Source: a virus
Lineage: Duplodnaviria; Heunggongvirae; Uroviricota; Caudoviricetes
Strand: one strand, 5' to 3'
Length of the DNA: 6,389 nt
Virus record (IMG/VR): IMGVR_UViG_2706794662_000016
Shown in pieces: positions 1,171 through 6,389 of this stretch. The notes under the pieces are model-generated. The model had not been told where the DNA came from. It did no database searches and saw nothing but the letters and a program-made list of their open reading frames with translations. Numbering within the stretch: the stretch's first letter is position 1; every line of letters starts with the position of its first letter. The position numbers and the translations under genes were made by a program.

Positions 1171-1503
1171 TTAACGGGGGTCTGTGTGGTCGTTATCCTT
1201 AAGGTCAAGCGTCCATGTACGACCGAACAGTTTAAAGACAACAAGCACTCTGACGAGGACGTAGCGAAGTAGCAGGCCTGCAATCAGCCCAATACCTCCA
1301 CCAGTCCATACATCAGGTGACCCCAGCTCAGGAGGGAGATTTACCATTAGTTTTCCTTGTAAGACGCTCTCAATCGCATTCTGACACAAAAAGTACCTGA
1401 CCTTATGAGTTGACCTGAAGAGGTCGTTTAACTCGTTACAGGGCGATTGAAGAGGTCTGTGTGCAATGCAAAATATGCGACCAAATACATAGCCACGCCT
1501 CAT
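1171..1503 (-). CDS. Hypothetical small protein (110 aa) with hydrophobic C-terminal segment; alternative 58-aa product from internal ATG (complement 1345-1347)
   Basis: A minus-strand promoter lies immediately upstream, with SD GGGGAGAG 6 nt before the ATG at complement(1501-1503). The C-terminus GGGIGLIAGLLLRYVLVRVLVVF is hydrophobic. The internal Met53 has its own SD (AAGGA). The N-terminal third is encoded across repeat element A, so its true extent is uncertain. Confidence 0.5.
   Translation of the reverse strand: MRRGYVFGRIFCIAHRPLQSPCNELNDLFRSTHKVRYFLCQNAIESVLQGKLMVNLPPELGSPDVWTGGGIGLIAGLLLRYVLVRVLVVFKLFGRTWTLDLKDNDHTDPR
1362..1459 (+). repeat. Bipartite repeat element, copy A: conserved 5' arm (1362-1392) and 3' arm (1426-1459) around a variable core; arms carry inverted repeat CTCAATCGC / GCGATTGA(A)GAG
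   Basis: Near-identical to copy B in both arms (5' arm about 29 of 31 nt, 3' arm 31 of 34 nt by eye); the cores differ in sequence and length. Confidence 0.65.
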
Positions 1504-1525
1504 ATTTTACTCTCCCCATAAACCC

Positions 1526-1555
1526 ATTATACCACAGATGTTACGAAAATGTTAA
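1526..1555 (-). promoter_or_regulatory. Sigma70-type promoter on minus strand (TTAACA - 18 nt - TGgTATAAT) driving the 1171-1503 gene
   Basis: The -10 is complement of 1526-1531 (TATAAT) with an extended TG; the -35 is complement of 1550-1555 (TTAACA); SD and ATG follow within about 25 nt. Confidence 0.6.
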
Positions 1556-1561
1556 AAATAC

Positions 1562-1590
1562 TTGACATTAGTCTTTGAAAATGCTAATAT
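1562..1590 (+). promoter_or_regulatory. Sigma70-type promoter P1 (TTGACA - 17 nt - TGcTAATAT) driving the 1642-2953 operon
   Basis: Consensus -35 TTGACA at 1562-1567, 17-nt spacer, extended -10 at 1582-1590. Its -35 sits 6 bp from the -35 of the divergent minus-strand promoter. Confidence 0.65.
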
Positions 1591-1641
1591 TGTATATATA
1601 GGTTAACAGAATAATAACATCTTATGAGAGTCAGAACATGA

Positions 1642-2199
1642 ATGCAGTATTCAGAATTTAGAGCGATGCTTCAGGCATCAAGAGAACGCAACAAGCACAA
1701 CTCCTACGCTTACACAAACAACCCCACCAGCTACGAAGTCCCAACCTTTAGCAAATCCGAACGTAAGAACATTGAAGCGGTCATTCGTAGCATTACGCCA
1801 CGAGACAGATTTATGCCAGTACGCAAAACAACAAAGAATACTATTAAAAATTATCTGGCTAACTTTGACAGTTACGAGCAGTTACCAAGCAAGCTTGATG
1901 ATGTTTTTATTGGGTTCTGTAGAAGTGAAGGCCACCCGAAATACAACAAAAAACTATTTTATCTGCTAAAGAATCTTGACGAAATTAACGCATCCACCGT
2001 GACAAATCATCTTCAGCGACAGGCAACCAGACTTAGTTACGAATTACCAAGCGATAAATATTGCGCTTTGCTTGCTGTGATGTGCGCGAAATTAATTGGC
2101 ATTGTTGAACATCATATTGCCGTTGGGAATATTGAGCCAATGGAAAACGAGCAACCAGATTTCGAGTTTGACCCCTATTTAGTTACAGAGGATTTTTAA
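1642..2199 (+). CDS. Hypothetical protein (185 aa), first gene of operon
   Basis: Long ORF downstream of P1; the stop TAA at 2197-2199 abuts the next ATG. No family recognised; the SD is weak. Confidence 0.7.
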   Translation: MQYSEFRAMLQASRERNKHNSYAYTNNPTSYEVPTFSKSERKNIEAVIRSITPRDRFMPVRKTTKNTIKNYLANFDSYEQLPSKLDDVFIGFCRSEGHPKYNKKLFYLLKNLDEINASTVTNHLQRQATRLSYELPSDKYCALLAVMCAKLIGIVEHHIAVGNIEPMENEQPDFEFDPYLVTEDF

Positions 2200-2478
2200 A
2201 TGAATAAACACACATTAACCAGAGTTACAAAGACAGCCTTTGATGAACTGAACCGAATCAAAAACATTACAGGTCTGCCACACTCAGCAGTGATGAAGCT
2301 TGCAATTAACCGTGATATTAACGAACAGGATTTGCTTAATAGTCGCTTAGAGGCTGCAAGACACCATATCAGGATTAAGCAAGATGACCTTGATAGTCTG
2401 AAATCCTTAAATGCTTTTGGACTGGATTTAGCAAGGTTACTAAGTATCAAAATTCACAAACTGTCTCAGGAGGTCTGA
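2200..2478 (+). CDS. Hypothetical small protein (92 aa); possible ribbon-helix-helix-like N-terminus
   Basis: SD GAGGA 8 nt upstream; start abuts the upstream stop (TAAATG). The N-terminal HTLTRVTKTAFDELNRIKNITGLPHSAVMKLAI fits a strand-helix-helix pattern by eye only. Confidence 0.7.
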   Translation: MNKHTLTRVTKTAFDELNRIKNITGLPHSAVMKLAINRDINEQDLLNSRLEAARHHIRIKQDDLDSLKSLNAFGLDLARLLSIKIHKLSQEV

Positions 2479-2480
2479 TT

Positions 2481-2753
2481 ATGAAGCAATGGCGAGATGA
2501 TATTAAACGGTTCTTTGCAACTTACTTCATGATTAATTATGAGACAGGAATGCTTGAATGGATTGATGGTGGAGAGGTTAAGACAAGAGATGATGCTTAC
2601 GGTAATCCAATGATTCGTTATGGCACTCGTGATTATTATCTGAAGTATGTCATCTGGTTTTTGCATCATGAAGTTCAGGCAACTAAAAAGATTATCTTCA
2701 GGGATGGTAATAAAAGAAATTGCCACCCAAACAATTTACTCCTGGAGATTTAA
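2481..2753 (+). CDS. Hypothetical small protein (90 aa) with degenerate HNH_3-like signature (IIFRDGNKRNCHPNNLL); catalytic His apparently replaced by Arg
   Basis: Strong SD AGGAGG at 2468-2473, 7 nt before the ATG. The motif resembles the HNH_3 pattern HxDGNKxNN...NL from memory, with R in place of the first His. Confidence 0.7.
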   Translation: MKQWRDDIKRFFATYFMINYETGMLEWIDGGEVKTRDDAYGNPMIRYGTRDYYLKYVIWFLHHEVQATKKIIFRDGNKRNCHPNNLLLEI

Positions 2754-2953
2754 TGTTATGTATTAAATTCGAATATTTGACAGATAAAATGATTAAGCAT
2801 GTATCAGACCTGCTCATCAAAGAAGGTGGTTTCGGTGATGCTTGCAATCCAAAAGATATCTTCATTCATGCCACCAGCCCAAACGCAACACTAAAGACAG
2901 CAGTTACAGCGGAATGGTTTGAACGAAATAAAGCGGAATTAGGTTATTGGTAG
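2753..2953 (+). CDS. Hypothetical small protein (66 aa from ATG 2753; the track ORF begins at an upstream TTG at 2720)
   Basis: ATG overlaps the upstream stop (TAATG at 2751-2755); GGAG lies 6 nt upstream. Confidence 0.55.
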   Translation: MLCIKFEYLTDKMIKHVSDLLIKEGGFGDACNPKDIFIHATSPNATLKTAVTAEWFERNKAELGYW

Positions 2954-2990
2954 TCCGAGACTTTAAGAGAAATTAGAAAAACAGCTTATC

Positions 2991-3111
2991 AGACGCTCTC
3001 AATCGCATTCTAACGCAAAAAACTATCTTATTTTAGGGTGGGTAATACCACTGTACAGGCTACCCCTGAAAAAGACTGTTTAGCTCGTTACAGAGCGATT
3101 GAGGAGGTCTG
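2991..3111 (+). repeat. Bipartite repeat element, copy B: 5' arm 2991-3021, 3' arm 3078-3111, internal inverted repeat CTCAATCGC (2998-3006) / GCGATTGAG (3095-3103)
   Basis: Intergenic, with no ORF across it. Arms match copy A; the core contains palindrome CTGTACAG and a CCCCTGAAAAAG segment. Confidence 0.65.
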
Positions 3112-3131
3112 GTAAAAAGGAGATTTTAAAA

Positions 3132-3455
3132 ATGAACGAATATGAATTACAGATTTTCATTGATAGCGACACTGCTATGATGGTGCAGGCTTTCGCTGAT
3201 TCCGGTGTATCAATTGACCTTGATAAATTACTAAAGCTAATGGCTGAAAACTCAGAAGAAATTGAAGACTTTATTCAGGAAATTGAAACTGGTGAACCGC
3301 GTTTTATGTTTCCTGTTACCGACTCAAACATGAAGCGTCTTATTATCGAAGAAACGAACAAATACAGCGTTAGCCCTGAAAAATATCTCAAGGCGGCTAT
3401 AGCAATTTTGTATAGCGATAATATTCTGGTGACGGATTCGAAGGTGGTGCATTAA
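3132..3455 (+). CDS. Hypothetical acidic protein (107 aa from ATG 3132); possible RHH-like C-terminal region
   Basis: SD AAGGAG at 3117-3122, 9 nt before the ATG; the track ORF begins at an upstream TTG (3099) inside repeat B. C-terminal FMFPVTDSNMKRLIIEETNKYSVSPEKYLKAAIAIL fits a strand-helix-helix pattern by eye. Confidence 0.7.
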   Translation: MNEYELQIFIDSDTAMMVQAFADSGVSIDLDKLLKLMAENSEEIEDFIQEIETGEPRFMFPVTDSNMKRLIIEETNKYSVSPEKYLKAAIAILYSDNILVTDSKVVH

Positions 3456-3520
3456 TGGAATTGGTGATTATCTGTTTTGTATTGATTGGTATGATTGCAG
3501 GTGCATCTATTAAAGTATAA
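3455..3520 (+). CDS. Candidate micro-ORF, 21-aa hydrophobic peptide (MELVIICFVLIGMIAGASIKV)
   Basis: ATG overlaps the upstream stop (TAATG at 3453-3457); SD-like AAGGTGG at 3441-3447, 7 nt upstream. Not in the ORF track (below its length cutoff). Confidence 0.3.
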   Translation: MELVIICFVLIGMIAGASIKV

Positions 3521-3544: not shown

Positions 3545-3573
3545 TTGACAAACAACCTTGAGCATGACATAAT
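3545..3573 (+). promoter_or_regulatory. Sigma70-type promoter P2 (TTGACA - 17 nt - TGaCATAAT)
   Basis: Consensus -35 at 3545-3550, 17-nt spacer, extended -10 at 3565-3573. Followed by TGTATATATGG, which also follows P1. Confidence 0.6.
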
Positions 3574-3742
3574 TGTATATATGGGGGAGAGCAATTCTCT
3601 CTTATTTTTTCTTTCAATAATCCGATGGATGGATATTCTGAGTTGGAAAGGTGCAATGCTTTTCGTCCTAGCCTTTCAGGTTGGTCTGAGAGGCTATCTC
3701 AAAAAGTCTTTGTTCATTCATTATTGAATCCTTTACAGCTTT

Positions 3743-3770
3743 GCCCTAATCATGAGTTAGGGCTTTCTTT
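3743..3770 (+). terminator. Candidate intrinsic terminator (GCCCTAA - 7-nt loop - TTAGGGC, then TTTCTTT)
   Basis: Perfect 7-bp stem at 3743-3749 and 3757-3763 followed by a U-rich tract. Confidence 0.5.
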
Positions 3771-3840
3771 AAGAGTTTTTAAACAGAGCTTTTAAAGAAA
3801 GTTTTCCTGAAACTTCGTTAACGTTATAAGCAAACCTCCA

Positions 3841-3875
3841 AAGCCCTTCACAGATTATGTTTAGGGCTTTTCTTA
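3841..3875 (+). terminator. Second, weaker hairpin paralogous to the 3743-3770 hairpin (AAGCCCT ... AGGGCTT then TTCTT)
   Basis: 7-bp stem with a 15-nt loop; shares TTAGGGCTTT(T)CTT with the first hairpin. Confidence 0.3.
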
Positions 3876-3946
3876 ATAGAGCATCTTTAATAAATCGTTA
3901 AGTCATCTTCTAAGTGTATTGGCGTTGAAGGTGCTCTATTAAGAAA
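3869..3946. repeat. 15-bp perfect inverted repeat TTTCTTAATAGAGCA (3869-3883) / TGCTCTATTAAGAAA (3932-3946) with 48-nt spacer, in the leader of the 3971 gene
   Basis: Extended base by base until the first mismatch. A second interleaved inverted repeat, CTAAGTGT (3910-3917) / ACACTTAG (3952-3959), abuts the SD GAGG at 3959-3962. Confidence 0.65.
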
Positions 3947-3970
3947 TAACCACACTTAGAGGAAATTATA

Positions 3971-5069: not shown

Positions 5070-6347
5070 ATGGCACAATTTAAAGTTGATGATTTTCTGA
5101 TTGAGTTAAGTTTTAACTCTCAGAAAGTTTTAAAAGGCTTGGAAAAAGCCGAGAAACAAACGATGCAGGTAGCATCACGAATTGAGAAGCGATTGAATAA
5201 GTCGTTTAGAGTTAATCCTACGCCTTTAAATGATTCTCTCAAACTAATGGAAAGAAATGTCGATAAAACTGTTTCCAAGATTGAGCAGCGTCTTAAAAAC
5301 ACTAGAGCGTTTAAGATTAAAACTGAAATTGAGGATACTTTAAAGCCACTTAGACAACCAAGACAGCCACGAATTAGCGGAAGCAGAGCAATCACAGCAG
5401 CTTACTCAGCGAATATGAGCAAGCTTCGTGACTTTAATCCTATGCTTGAGAAGTATTTTAAAAGCCAGTATTACAGCTTAAGCAGTAAATCCAAGACACT
5501 TGGAAACGAAACTTTTAATCGTGAGTTAGCAAAGTTAAATCAGTCTCTTCGTGAAACACTTTCTAAGTTTAACAAGACCACCAGCAAAAATAATCACAGT
5601 GAAAATGCTTCAAATAGTCTGGATGTATTAGCTACGAGTGCAATCAAAGCAGGTACAGCCATTTATAGTTTTCAGACAGCCTTAGAAGCTTACAGGCGGA
5701 TTATGGAGGTTGGTCTGAAAAAAGAAGCATCACAACGAGCGGCACAATTCGTTTTAGGTGATGAAGGTGCTAAACGAGCTACAGAATTTGTTAAGAATCT
5801 TGCTGATAGTAGTGGTGTAGACCAGATTGAAACATTAAGCAGTTTTGCTAAGTTTTCCGCTGGTGCTGGTGATATGAATGCAGACCAGAAAGAATCCTTA
5901 TTTTCTAATGTGATTGGTACATCCAGATTAATGGGGCTAAGCACCGATGAAATTAACGGGATTTTAAAAGCTTTCGAGCAGATGGCATCTAAAGGAAAGA
6001 TTCAGGCTGAAGAGCTACGCGGTCAATTAGGTGACAGAATGGCAGGTGCTTTTCAGTTATTTGCCAGAAGTCTTGGGATGACTACGGAAGAATTAGACAA
6101 GGCCATGAAAGACGGTAAGATTCTTTCTAAAGATGTTCTTCCTAAAGTATCCGCTGAAATGGGAAGGATGATTGATAAAGCTGGTGGATGGGAAAAGATT
6201 ATTAACTCTACTCAGACGCAGTTAGGCCGCTTAAGTAATTCATGGAATAATAATCTGGCCTTAATGTTCGATGGTTCACAGGAAGGTTTAACAGACTTTA
6301 CAAGGTCACTGACTAATTTACTTAATTCACTAAATAGCTGCGCTTAA
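5070..6347 (+). CDS. Tape-measure-domain protein (425 aa), lambda gpH-like N-terminal region; possibly a truncated remnant
   Basis: SD AAAGAGGTG 10 nt upstream. The motif EELRGQLGDRMAGAFQLFARSLGMTTEELDKAMKDGKILSKDVLP matches the conserved phage tape-measure core as I recall it, and the N-terminus MAQFKVDDFLIELSF resembles lambda gpH MAEPVGDLVVDLSL. Domain assignment is from memory. Confidence 0.8.
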   Translation: MAQFKVDDFLIELSFNSQKVLKGLEKAEKQTMQVASRIEKRLNKSFRVNPTPLNDSLKLMERNVDKTVSKIEQRLKNTRAFKIKTEIEDTLKPLRQPRQPRISGSRAITAAYSANMSKLRDFNPMLEKYFKSQYYSLSSKSKTLGNETFNRELAKLNQSLRETLSKFNKTTSKNNHSENASNSLDVLATSAIKAGTAIYSFQTALEAYRRIMEVGLKKEASQRAAQFVLGDEGAKRATEFVKNLADSSGVDQIETLSSFAKFSAGAGDMNADQKESLFSNVIGTSRLMGLSTDEINGILKAFEQMASKGKIQAEELRGQLGDRMAGAFQLFARSLGMTTEELDKAMKDGKILSKDVLPKVSAEMGRMIDKAGGWEKIINSTQTQLGRLSNSWNNNLALMFDGSQEGLTDFTRSLTNLLNSLNSCA

Positions 6348-6389
6348 TACCGCTACACTTTTGCCAGCCCATGTTTGCCTCCGGGGAAT

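Follow-up and report, generated by a model that had tools for sequence, protein, structure and literature searches.

The present analysis dealt with two copies of a repeat, A (1362-1459) and B (2991-3111), in a 6,389-nt stretch of viral DNA (hereafter the window; IMG/VR virus record IMGVR_UViG_2706794662_000016, Caudoviricetes), and indicated that this repeat is related to part of the cer-type XerCD multimer-resolution sites of small plasmids. With about as much confidence as doubt, we regard A and B as copies of the hairpin module that lies in the inner accessory part of such sites, A being a putative Xer site and a leader read in the direction of the Rcd RNA, and B, together with a third type of copy, C, being paralogues devoid of a recombination core. 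The homology, and the architectural placement of the repeats next to cer and Rcd, appear fairly secure from the sequence comparisons reported below. The kind of element is already known, from cer-like accessory sequences and from Rcd; what is new is that a satellite-like island carries it in several copies, most of them core-less, and that the same box is present in the injection-stop region of phage T5 and in other virulent phages. The initial annotation of the window could not assign the repeat to any known class. This statement no longer holds, since an orphan repeat can now be placed next to the well-studied cer/Xer/Rcd system.

Arms, Cores and Fold of the Repeat Pair

Both copies are imperfect palindromes, 98 nt long for A (arms 1362-1392 and 1426-1459, core 1393-1425; minus is the likely functional strand) and 121 nt long for B (arms 2991-3021 and 3078-3111, core 3022-3077; listed on the plus strand). 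A repeat finder paired the 5' arms over 37 nt with 89% identity (1356-1392 with 2985-3021) and the 3' arms over 34 nt with 91% identity (1426-1459 with 3078-3111), the latter similarity being lengthened by BLAST to 47 nt at 85% (1414-1459 with 3065-3111). The cores, of 33 nt in A and 56 nt in B, gave no alignment with each other. This is in line with the initial description of two copies having conserved arms, about 90% identical, around unrelated cores. The 9-nt inverted repeat from which a long-range stem had been proposed, CTCAATCGC/GCGATTGAG, was also recovered, exact in B and with 8 of 9 positions in A; the true inverted repeat is however longer, about 25-30 nt per arm in both copies, with bulges. 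With up to one mismatch, the 9-mer CTCAATCGC occurred 7 times in the window (0.94 expected), and the 14-mer ATCGCATTCTAACG, with up to three mismatches, matched the four arms only (4 occurrences, 0.48 expected).

Each copy forms a single long imperfect hairpin, on either strand. On the plus strand, the fold energy reached -34.3 kcal/mol for A (z -4.2) and -44.1 kcal/mol for B (z -5.6), and no shuffled sequence equalled either value. Conservation at the nucleotide level, and not at that of a protein, was likewise confirmed: the 110-aa minus-strand frame that is open across A is not conserved, being interrupted by a stop inside A in Escherichia coli island L001, and no open reading frame (ORF) of at least 40 aa spans B. 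The search for further copies that had been suggested at the outset did reveal, beyond the window, the third copy C as well as plasmid and phage relatives, the latter sharing the first 22-24 nt of the 5' arm (the box, (A/G)ACGCTCTNNANCGCATTCTAAC), whereas the Rfam search gave no match at E <=1, either in the window or at the box in T5 and 121Q loci. ARAGORN, run for tRNA and tmRNA, found no tRNA in the T5, 121Q and L001 loci.

The Plasmid Counterpart Is a cer-Type Site

When E. coli records were searched under relaxed conditions, the box turned up on small plasmids of type Col156, which encode a ColE2-type Rep protein. On these plasmids, an ARG box (TGTGCATAGTTATGCA) precedes the element and a XerC/XerD core (GGTACGTACAA-CAGGAG-TTATGGTAAAT) follows it, which is the layout of the ColE1 cer site, fetched for comparison; the plasmid core agrees with that of ColE1 cer at 10 of 11 positions in the XerC arm and at 11 of 11 in the XerD arm. 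Read in order, the plasmid site consists of the ARG box, a -10-like hexamer, a hairpin made of inverted arms (TTCTGACGC ... GCGTCAGAA) round a variable middle, the segment AGCGATTGAGAGCGTTTTAG, the XerC arm, a 6-nt spacer and the XerD arm. This Col156-type cer-like site was present in 1,267 plasmid records, and a compensatory change of a stem pair, from A-T to G-C, distinguishes plasmids L114 and L117. Within ColE1 cer, the regulatory RNA Rcd is encoded by the segment that separates the ARG box from the XerC arm (PMC4393325, PMC2831885), rcd is transcribed from the ArgR side towards XerCD (PMC2831885), and the plasmid box lies in DNA bound by accessory proteins (PMC2831885).

Copy B matched the Col156 cer-like site at 30 of 32 nt and copy A at 27 of 29 nt, in A directly beside the XerC arm; the 5' arm of the island copies hence agrees at 27-30 of 29-32 nt with the accessory segment next to the XerC arm in the plasmid site. 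In both plasmid and island elements, two inverted arms surround a variable middle, and at A the order is the same, namely a possible ARG-like box, the hairpin, a XerC-like arm, a short spacer and a XerD arm. Like Rcd, the island copies are long hairpins, about 80-120 nt in length, in which the ends are paired and the middle varies (PMC4393325); the hairpin of A occupies the same position, between ARG box and XerC arm, and its favoured strand corresponds to the direction of rcd. The island element nevertheless differs from cer-type sites in belonging to a chromosomal integrative island and not to a plasmid, in occurring in at most three copies per element, of which B and C have no Xer core, and in its extended arms, which pair the single-stranded tail of the plasmid element, GCGATTGAGAGCG. 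It differs from Rcd, an RNA that binds tryptophanase, in showing almost no primary sequence similarity to ColE1 rcd beyond GCG..GCGTTTTAG, and in lacking a Pcer-like promoter with an intact -10.

Besides its cer-like site, and about 650 bp from it, the small Col156-type plasmid L115 was seen to carry a tRNA-Lys gene (3156-3231). Recent work on defences that reportedly target tRNA-Lys makes such a plasmid-borne gene noteworthy.

Copy A, Its Xer-Like Core and Its Strand-Asymmetric Fold

The Xer-core-like sequence adjoining A (1339-1367, minus strand; GCGTCTTACAA-GGAAAAC-TAATGGTAAAT) is made of a XerC-like arm (GCGTCTTACAA, 1357-1367), a 7-nt spacer (GGAAAAC, 1350-1356) and a XerD-like arm (TAATGGTAAAT, 1339-1349), all read on that strand. 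The XerD-like arm agrees with ColE1 cer at 10 of 11 positions, and the match beside A is the only one of at least 10/11 in the window. This core is found to the same side of the box, and on the same strand, as that of plasmids L114 and L115, and both E. coli L001 and Escherichia albertii L005 conserve it. All three parts of a Xer core (11-bp XerC arm, 6-8-bp centre, 11-bp XerD arm) are hence recognisable at A, the XerC arm being weak, and the accessory sequence, which spans about 180 bp on the XerC side of cer-like sites, has a homologue at A over part of that region only. Towards the other end, a weak ARG-box-like palindrome (TCGCATATTTTGCATTG, 1464-1480, minus strand) lies at a distance of about 125 bp from the Xer-like core, which is also that found in cer, where the ArgR box is some 100-130 bp from the crossover. 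The suggestion that the arms form a protein-recognised site may be right in this form, as judged from their homology to the ArgR- and PepA-bound accessory region of cer and from the XerC/XerD-like core of A.

The optional presence of A has left a clean trace: relative to islands L007, L038 and L091, it is a 97-nt insertion or deletion, with no target-site duplication at its junctions. The insertion junction, between TTACAA and GGAAA, falls at the boundary between XerC arm and spacer.

Upstream of A lies a strong leftward sigma-70-like promoter (TTAACA-18-TATAAT, with TG; 1526-1555, minus strand; scored 11/12), which diverges from a rightward one (1562-1590, plus strand; scored 10/12) and is kept in islands both with and without A. 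As predicted from its position, the leftward promoter would transcribe A in the rcd-like direction and then a 58-aa gene. The direction of rcd at A is that of the minus strand, and this is also the strand favoured by the fold. The loci gathered (81 metagenome, 9 viral and several genome loci) provided 29 distinct copies of A, 23 of B and 20 of C. Over the 29 natural variants of A, the mean fold energy was -33.0 +/- 1.8 kcal/mol for the minus strand and -26.7 +/- 4.1 for the plus strand, the minus strand folding better in 27 of them; the consensus energies were -27.5 and -14.9 kcal/mol, respectively. Across variants, 98.7% of the cells on the minus strand were paired. Variation consists mostly of one-sided changes to G-U on that strand, with one double change, and the same changes are C-A mismatches on the plus strand. 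Copy A thus keeps its fold on one strand only, that of the rcd direction.

The 58-aa gene, which we call TM58 (1171-1347, minus strand), was not annotated and is clearly a real gene encoding a membrane protein, as all 34 distinct alleles are intact, with a dN/dS of about 0.14. It lies to the left of A and is read from the minus strand, so that A sits in its leader, and a terminator-like hairpin follows its 3' end. Its product contains one hydrophobic helix (MVNLPPELGSPDVW..GGGIGLIAGLLLRYVLVRVLVVF..) and could be a type I toxin-like or exclusion protein; PGAP did not call the gene in any genome examined. Upstream of TM58, a short ORF with a good Shine-Dalgarno sequence (1460-1503, minus strand; MRRGY... 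or MKRGY...) was also observed. In islands L038 and L091, which lack A, the stop of this ORF overlaps the TM58 start (TGAATG), which suggests translational coupling; A, inserted between the two ORFs, breaks this coupling. The core of A also holds one AGGTCG(T/G)TTAAGA-like repeat (GAGGTCGTTTAA), of a type met again elsewhere in the window.

Copies B and C and the Distribution of the Repeat

The gap that separates ORF4 (stop at 2953) from ORF5 (Shine-Dalgarno 3117-3122, ATG at 3132) contains copy B, just upstream of the ORF5 ribosome-binding site. Copy C belongs to a part of the island that is missing from the window and was seen in intact islands; it is B-like (about 70% identical), inverted, and located about 400 nt upstream of a small recombinase gene. 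B and C have an upstream extension in common (AGTCYGAGACTTTA ... AGCTTNTC; 2952-2990 in the window, plus strand), delimited by alignment of B, of C and of a C-type copy that takes the position of B in island L082. Despite different stem sequences and register, B and C both keep a long hairpin. Together with the strong folds and the preservation of the fold of A on one strand, this fits well with the structured, single-stranded element that had been envisaged.

The order C(-) ... A(+) ... B(+) was constant in every locus mapped. Each copy is optional; A, B and C were found in all combinations, and many islands had only one. B travels with the module formed by ORF4 and an HNH endonuclease gene, at the right edge of a swappable set of genes, and in L082 it is replaced by the C-type copy. 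The proposal that the repeat marks module boundaries receives weak support from this position, from the replacement in L082 and from the optional insertions and deletions. Among 5,426 E. coli genomes, B was found in 335-396 (335 at >=80% coverage) and A in 172-220, always in unannotated DNA. The copies are not dispersed: the median is one place per genome, and they occur inside the island family only, at three fixed positions.

At this module (2481-2953 in the window; also in L038, L050, L065 and others), the HNH gene stands on either side of ORF4 depending on the island (HNH-ORF4 or ORF4-HNH), and it is absent from islands that have an alternative 387-nt ORF and an unrelated hairpin at the position of B. 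From this distribution, it seems to behave like a free-standing homing endonuclease gene. Minimal islands were also seen (L017, L021 and L075), consisting solely of a large serine recombinase, one C-type hairpin and a small serine recombinase, with all intervening parts lost.

Phage Relatives of the Box

The box, alone or with its 3' partner, was also found in several groups of phages. At 95-100% identity, it is present in intergenic DNA of many T5-like and 121Q-like jumbo phages, and boxes with lower scores occur in Seoulvirus, KVP40-like and T1-like phages. It lies in the terminal repeats of Asteriusvirus (jumbo coliphages), and just before a gene start in SPAsTU and T1-like phages; the T1-like copies are identical and hence bring no information on covariation. 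The GAGG-rich 3' box accompanies it in the 121Q and KVP40 copies, that of 121Q being a full inverted-arm element. Compared by eye with the plasmid element, the T5_ev212-type box agrees at 28 of 32 nt, including the GCGTTTTAGC tail. T5-like and KVP40 copies have no significant fold (z about 0 to -1.3), which means that what the whole family shares is the box sequence.

In the T5 reference (L109, NC_005859), two inverted boxes (6267-6289 and 9350-9372) flank the hypervariable T5.011-T5.017 operon, and the second of these is located within the annotated injection stop signal, next to DnaA boxes and to a palindrome that resembles a LexA box (for the injection-stop region, see bioRxiv 10.1101/866236). 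Repeat regions 2 and 3 of T5, with their inverted boxes of 22-24 nt on either side of this operon, thus reproduce on a large scale the scheme of conserved arms and swappable middle; they differ from the island elements in having no significant hairpin and no Xer core, and in their position next to the DnaA boxes and the LexA-box-like palindrome. We also observed that the long inverted repeats of these two regions (6000-6300 and 9300-9560) end with DnaA boxes, a LexA-box-like palindrome (CTGTATAAATATACAG), a -10-like hexamer (TATAAT or TAATAT) and the box. With such a hexamer before each of them, the boxes would be promoter-proximal and face into T5.011-T5.017. A role as the nick site of T5 was rejected, the annotated major nick (9748-9749) being about 380 bp from the box, which contains no GCGC.

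We therefore raise, as a speculation with a modest chance of being right, the possibility that the 22-nt box and its GAGG-rich partner constitute a portable recognition module for a conserved host machine, be it an ArgR/PepA/Xer-type complex or an Rcd-like RNA pathway. Plasmids would use it in cer-like sites, the island would have multiplied it in core-less form, and T5, Asteriusvirus, KVP40-like, Seoulvirus and T1-like phages would have co-opted it. If this is true, DNA entry, regulation or host take-over by T5 and these elements would depend in part on a cer-type architecture, or on an Rcd-like RNA able to arrest the growth of the host.

Possible Role of the Repeats and Competing Explanations

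From a mechanistic point of view, the module would be a hairpin-forming segment of about 100-120 bp, as in the XerCD multimer-resolution sites of small Col156/ColE2-like plasmids. With its left flank, A appears to rebuild the layout of these sites (weak ARG-like palindrome, hairpin, XerC-like arm, 7-nt spacer, XerD-like arm), and it may be, or may recently have been, a cer-like Xer site of the excised circular form of the island. It would be transcribed from the leftward promoter, in the direction of rcd, as the folded leader of TM58. B and C would most likely be co-transcribed as RNA hairpins a few nt before the ribosome-binding site of the next gene, or possibly offer extra binding DNA for the same accessory proteins; candidate roles of the core-less copies also include that of relics. 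We infer any action of Xer, ArgR and PepA, any Rcd-like activity and the role of the solo copies from this resemblance to known sites. A piece of the cer system is met here outside its usual plasmid setting, in up to three copies and mostly without the recombination core, in a little-known Escherichia island.

Several observations weigh against this proposal. The XerC-like arm of A agrees with ColE1 cer at just 7 of 11 positions, and the half-sites of the ARG-like palindrome TCGCATATTTTGCATTG, although recognisable in the alignment, have a spacing off by one relative to the boxes of ColE1 cer and L114; both parts are thus weak in comparison with cer-type sites. The core also overlaps the start of a protein gene, the XerD-like arm containing the ATG of TM58, and this arm is found in some islands without A (of the L007 type), so that the protein may be what constrains it. 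Within 150 nt of the box, no Xer core could be recognised in B, C or the T5-like, 121Q-like, SPAsTU, KVP40 and T1-like copies, and B and C, without a core, cannot recombine through Xer. Sequence similarity between island and plasmid elements is limited to about 30-36 nt plus the architecture, that to ColE1 rcd itself is slight, and BLAST of the island copies against the ColE1 cer region gave no significant match. At the -10 position of the plasmid element (TAAAAA in L114), the island copies have a degenerate CTTCAA or CCTCAA, and they show no Pcer promoter with a -35 overlapping the ARG box, the promoter positions of ColE1 being themselves deduced. Double, i.e. compensatory, changes in A did not exceed the shuffle control, which points to a strand-asymmetric tolerance and not to classical covariation. 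In B and C, fold energies and pair counts were symmetric between strands, because each strand finds its own G-U-tolerant structure, and plasmid variant L118 favours the opposite strand. Lastly, the need for a Xer site is not obvious in an island that is already equipped with a small serine resolvase and its res-like repeats.

Among competing explanations, we see a minor but real chance that the repeats are cis-acting mRNA hairpins with no link to Xer, i.e. a leader stem-loop (A) and an intercistronic one (B) that set mRNA processing, stability or translation, their likeness to cer reflecting ancestry only. RNase III sites in the early mRNA of T7 and in the lambda N leader provide a model for such elements, and the stems of A and B are long enough for an RNase III site (an imperfect stem of at least 20 bp), although cleavage is not predictable from sequence. 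In the local direction of transcription, both copies end 4-6 nt before a Shine-Dalgarno sequence, A preceding AAGGA and the ATG at 1347, and B preceding AAGGAG and the ATG at 3132. Both folds are highly stable, A variants keep theirs on the transcribed strand, and B and C keep long hairpins with changed stem sequence and register; optional presence is what is expected of a modulator, and the SPAsTU and T1-like boxes also stand just before a gene start. However, the arm sequence is conserved far beyond the needs of pairing, T5-like and KVP40 boxes do not fold significantly, and, because transcription reads A in the orientation opposite to that of B and C, no single sequence-specific contact between RNA and protein can serve all copies. 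Should the solo copies be ordinary mRNA hairpins, their description would still provide a useful annotation of DNA that is now unannotated in about 6% of E. coli genomes. Alternatively, the box could be a double-stranded DNA site for a conserved host or phage protein (e.g., PepA, ArgR or a FIS-type protein), employed close to promoters, in Xer sites and in the injection-stop region of T5, and the hairpin would be a by-product of inverted boxes. Indeed, the box and not the fold is common to plasmids and to T5-like, Asteriusvirus, Seoulvirus, KVP40 and T1-like phages; T5 has it twice, inverted, inside and beside the injection-stop signal and near DnaA boxes and the LexA-box-like palindrome; its orientation to genes varies, and the plasmid box is in DNA bound by accessory proteins (PMC2831885). 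We nonetheless judge this explanation rather unlikely. The spacing of inverted boxes extends from 13 nt to 3 kb, head-to-head and tail-to-tail arrangements both occur, the cores of B and C are self-complementary with changed sequences, and duplex binding does not predict the strand-asymmetric tolerance of A (G-U versus C-A); PepA, moreover, has no defined consensus to test against.

A miniature mobile palindrome, of the MITE type, that spreads among phages, plasmids and islands would account for the clean 97-nt insertion of A in otherwise collinear islands, for arms that resemble terminal inverted repeats round a variable middle, and for a box shared by unrelated replicons. The ERIC, YPAL and MITE-like intergenic repeats of enterobacteria are imperfect palindromes of 100-170 bp, co-transcribed with the neighbouring genes in either orientation as RNA hairpins, present in many dispersed copies and usually flanked by TA duplications. 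The island elements are similar imperfect palindromes; they differ by their three fixed positions in one island family and by their occurrence in regulatory regions of plasmids and phages. As there is no target-site duplication, no dispersal and no cognate transposase, and as the T5 box stands at the inner and not the outer end of the long inverted repeats, a mobile origin is distinctly improbable, and a dispersed MITE was rejected. Regulation by antisense RNA in trans, for which P4 CI RNA with seqA and seqC and the type I toxin-antitoxin loci are models, is very unlikely: the leftward RNA, containing the reverse complement of A, would pair with the arms that B (and C) contribute to the rightward operon. 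Since A and B are repeated directly in the DNA and transcribed from divergent promoters, their RNAs are about 90% complementary over 31 and 34-47 nt, and the gene downstream of A does encode a small hydrophobic protein, but A, B and C occur in every combination, many islands have only one of them, and both partners would be held in very stable hairpins. Finally, we can hardly credit the repeats with a function as processive antitermination sites similar to lambda nut or put. The 5' arm starts with GACGCTCTCAA, to be compared with GACGCTCTTAA in lambda nutL, the cores contain CCUGAAGAGG and CCCCUGAAAAAG, which resemble boxB loops, and terminator-like hairpins follow downstream of B. By contrast, the boxA-like half is not conserved in T5 (ACGTCCTAGAT), the boxB-like hairpin is not maintained (A variants break the plus-strand stem, and a local stem is missing in B), A stands in reverse orientation with respect to transcription, and the box compared with the rrn leader did not score above shuffles. 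An arginine-rich N-like protein is not encoded, and a lambda-type nut site, defined by boxA, boxB and an N-type protein, was accordingly rejected.

Further candidates were also set aside. Inversion by the small serine recombinase does not fit, as 9 of 9 loci aligned to L001 were collinear, including those with copies on opposite strands, and res-like TGTCTATAG repeats belonging to this enzyme are present. When pairing with the rrn operon, or imitation of it, was considered (16S, 23S, 5S and leader boxA), the best scores did not surpass those of shuffles. A motif resembling an anticodon loop (CGC-AUUCUAA-GCG) was present only in C, KVP40, SPAsTU and T5-like copies, and it has no known similarity to argU. 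Single-strand priming signals flanking an iteron-like region have a polarity that fits the island and not T5, and no primase is encoded. Integron attC sites were excluded by the absence of the R'/R'' consensus and of IntI. The PeSL cassettes of T4-like phages are likewise short conserved intergenic cassettes at the boundaries of insertions and deletions of small accessory genes in phage-like genomes (PMC4122927, PMC2839356); they consist, however, of a terminator stem-loop and an early promoter consensus, and the island elements have neither a consensus promoter nor a U-tract terminator.

The Island and Other Features of the Window

Both ends of the window are cut, and what is left in it is a remnant of a chromosomal island of Escherichia, 10-17 kb long. 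Its left end carries fragments of IS2 (1-61) and IS911 (58-190); at its right end, the tape measure gene is cut from about 6332, where the sequence (6330-6385) matches lambdoid phages (ev099, mEp332) and the ORF stops prematurely at 6347. By comparison with intact islands, it has neither copy C nor the baseplate gene, and both serine recombinases, the small and the large, are absent. Intact islands are bounded by the large serine recombinase, carry the tape measure gene, the baseplate gene and small ORFs, and most of them have the small serine recombinase. Their chromosomal insertion sites vary: L001 is inserted between yciI and tonB, others inside yecE and mdtG. Felix-O1-like virulent phages have the tape measure proteins nearest to that of the island (about 28% identity over the full length), and the island looks like a satellite of virulent phages. 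Apart from the tape measure protein, the serine recombinase and a weak HNH match that stayed below the Pfam cut-off, searches of the island ORFs against Pfam, PHROGs, NCBIfam and PDB sequences returned nothing.

In L001 (11291-11450), repeated TGTCTATAG and TATATAGACA motifs immediately precede the gene of the small serine recombinase. They resemble a res site with multiple subsites, and the small recombinase thus probably has its own target, distinct from the hairpin repeats.

Other repeats lie to the left of TM58 in the window, where a tandem duplication of 95 bp was found along with three or four repeats of the AGGTCG(T/G)TTAAGA type (763-849 and 858-1035). The surrounding stretch of about 1 kb contains no conserved ORF, a 95-aa ORF (643-930) having no start codon in L001. 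This stretch may be the replication origin of the island.

To the right of copy B, a 21-codon hydrophobic ORF (MELVIICFVLIGMIAGASIKV; 3455-3520) has a start that overlaps the stop of ORF5 (TAATG). It is followed, at 3545-3970, by a region with a second strong promoter (TTGACA-17-CATAAT), which shares its TGTATATAT tail with the promoter at 1562. Three terminator-like hairpins (3583-3605, 3743-3763 and about 3843-3875) come directly after this promoter and before ORF6, an arrangement that could correspond to a leader of the lambda PR'/6S type, in need of antitermination, or to a small-RNA gene.

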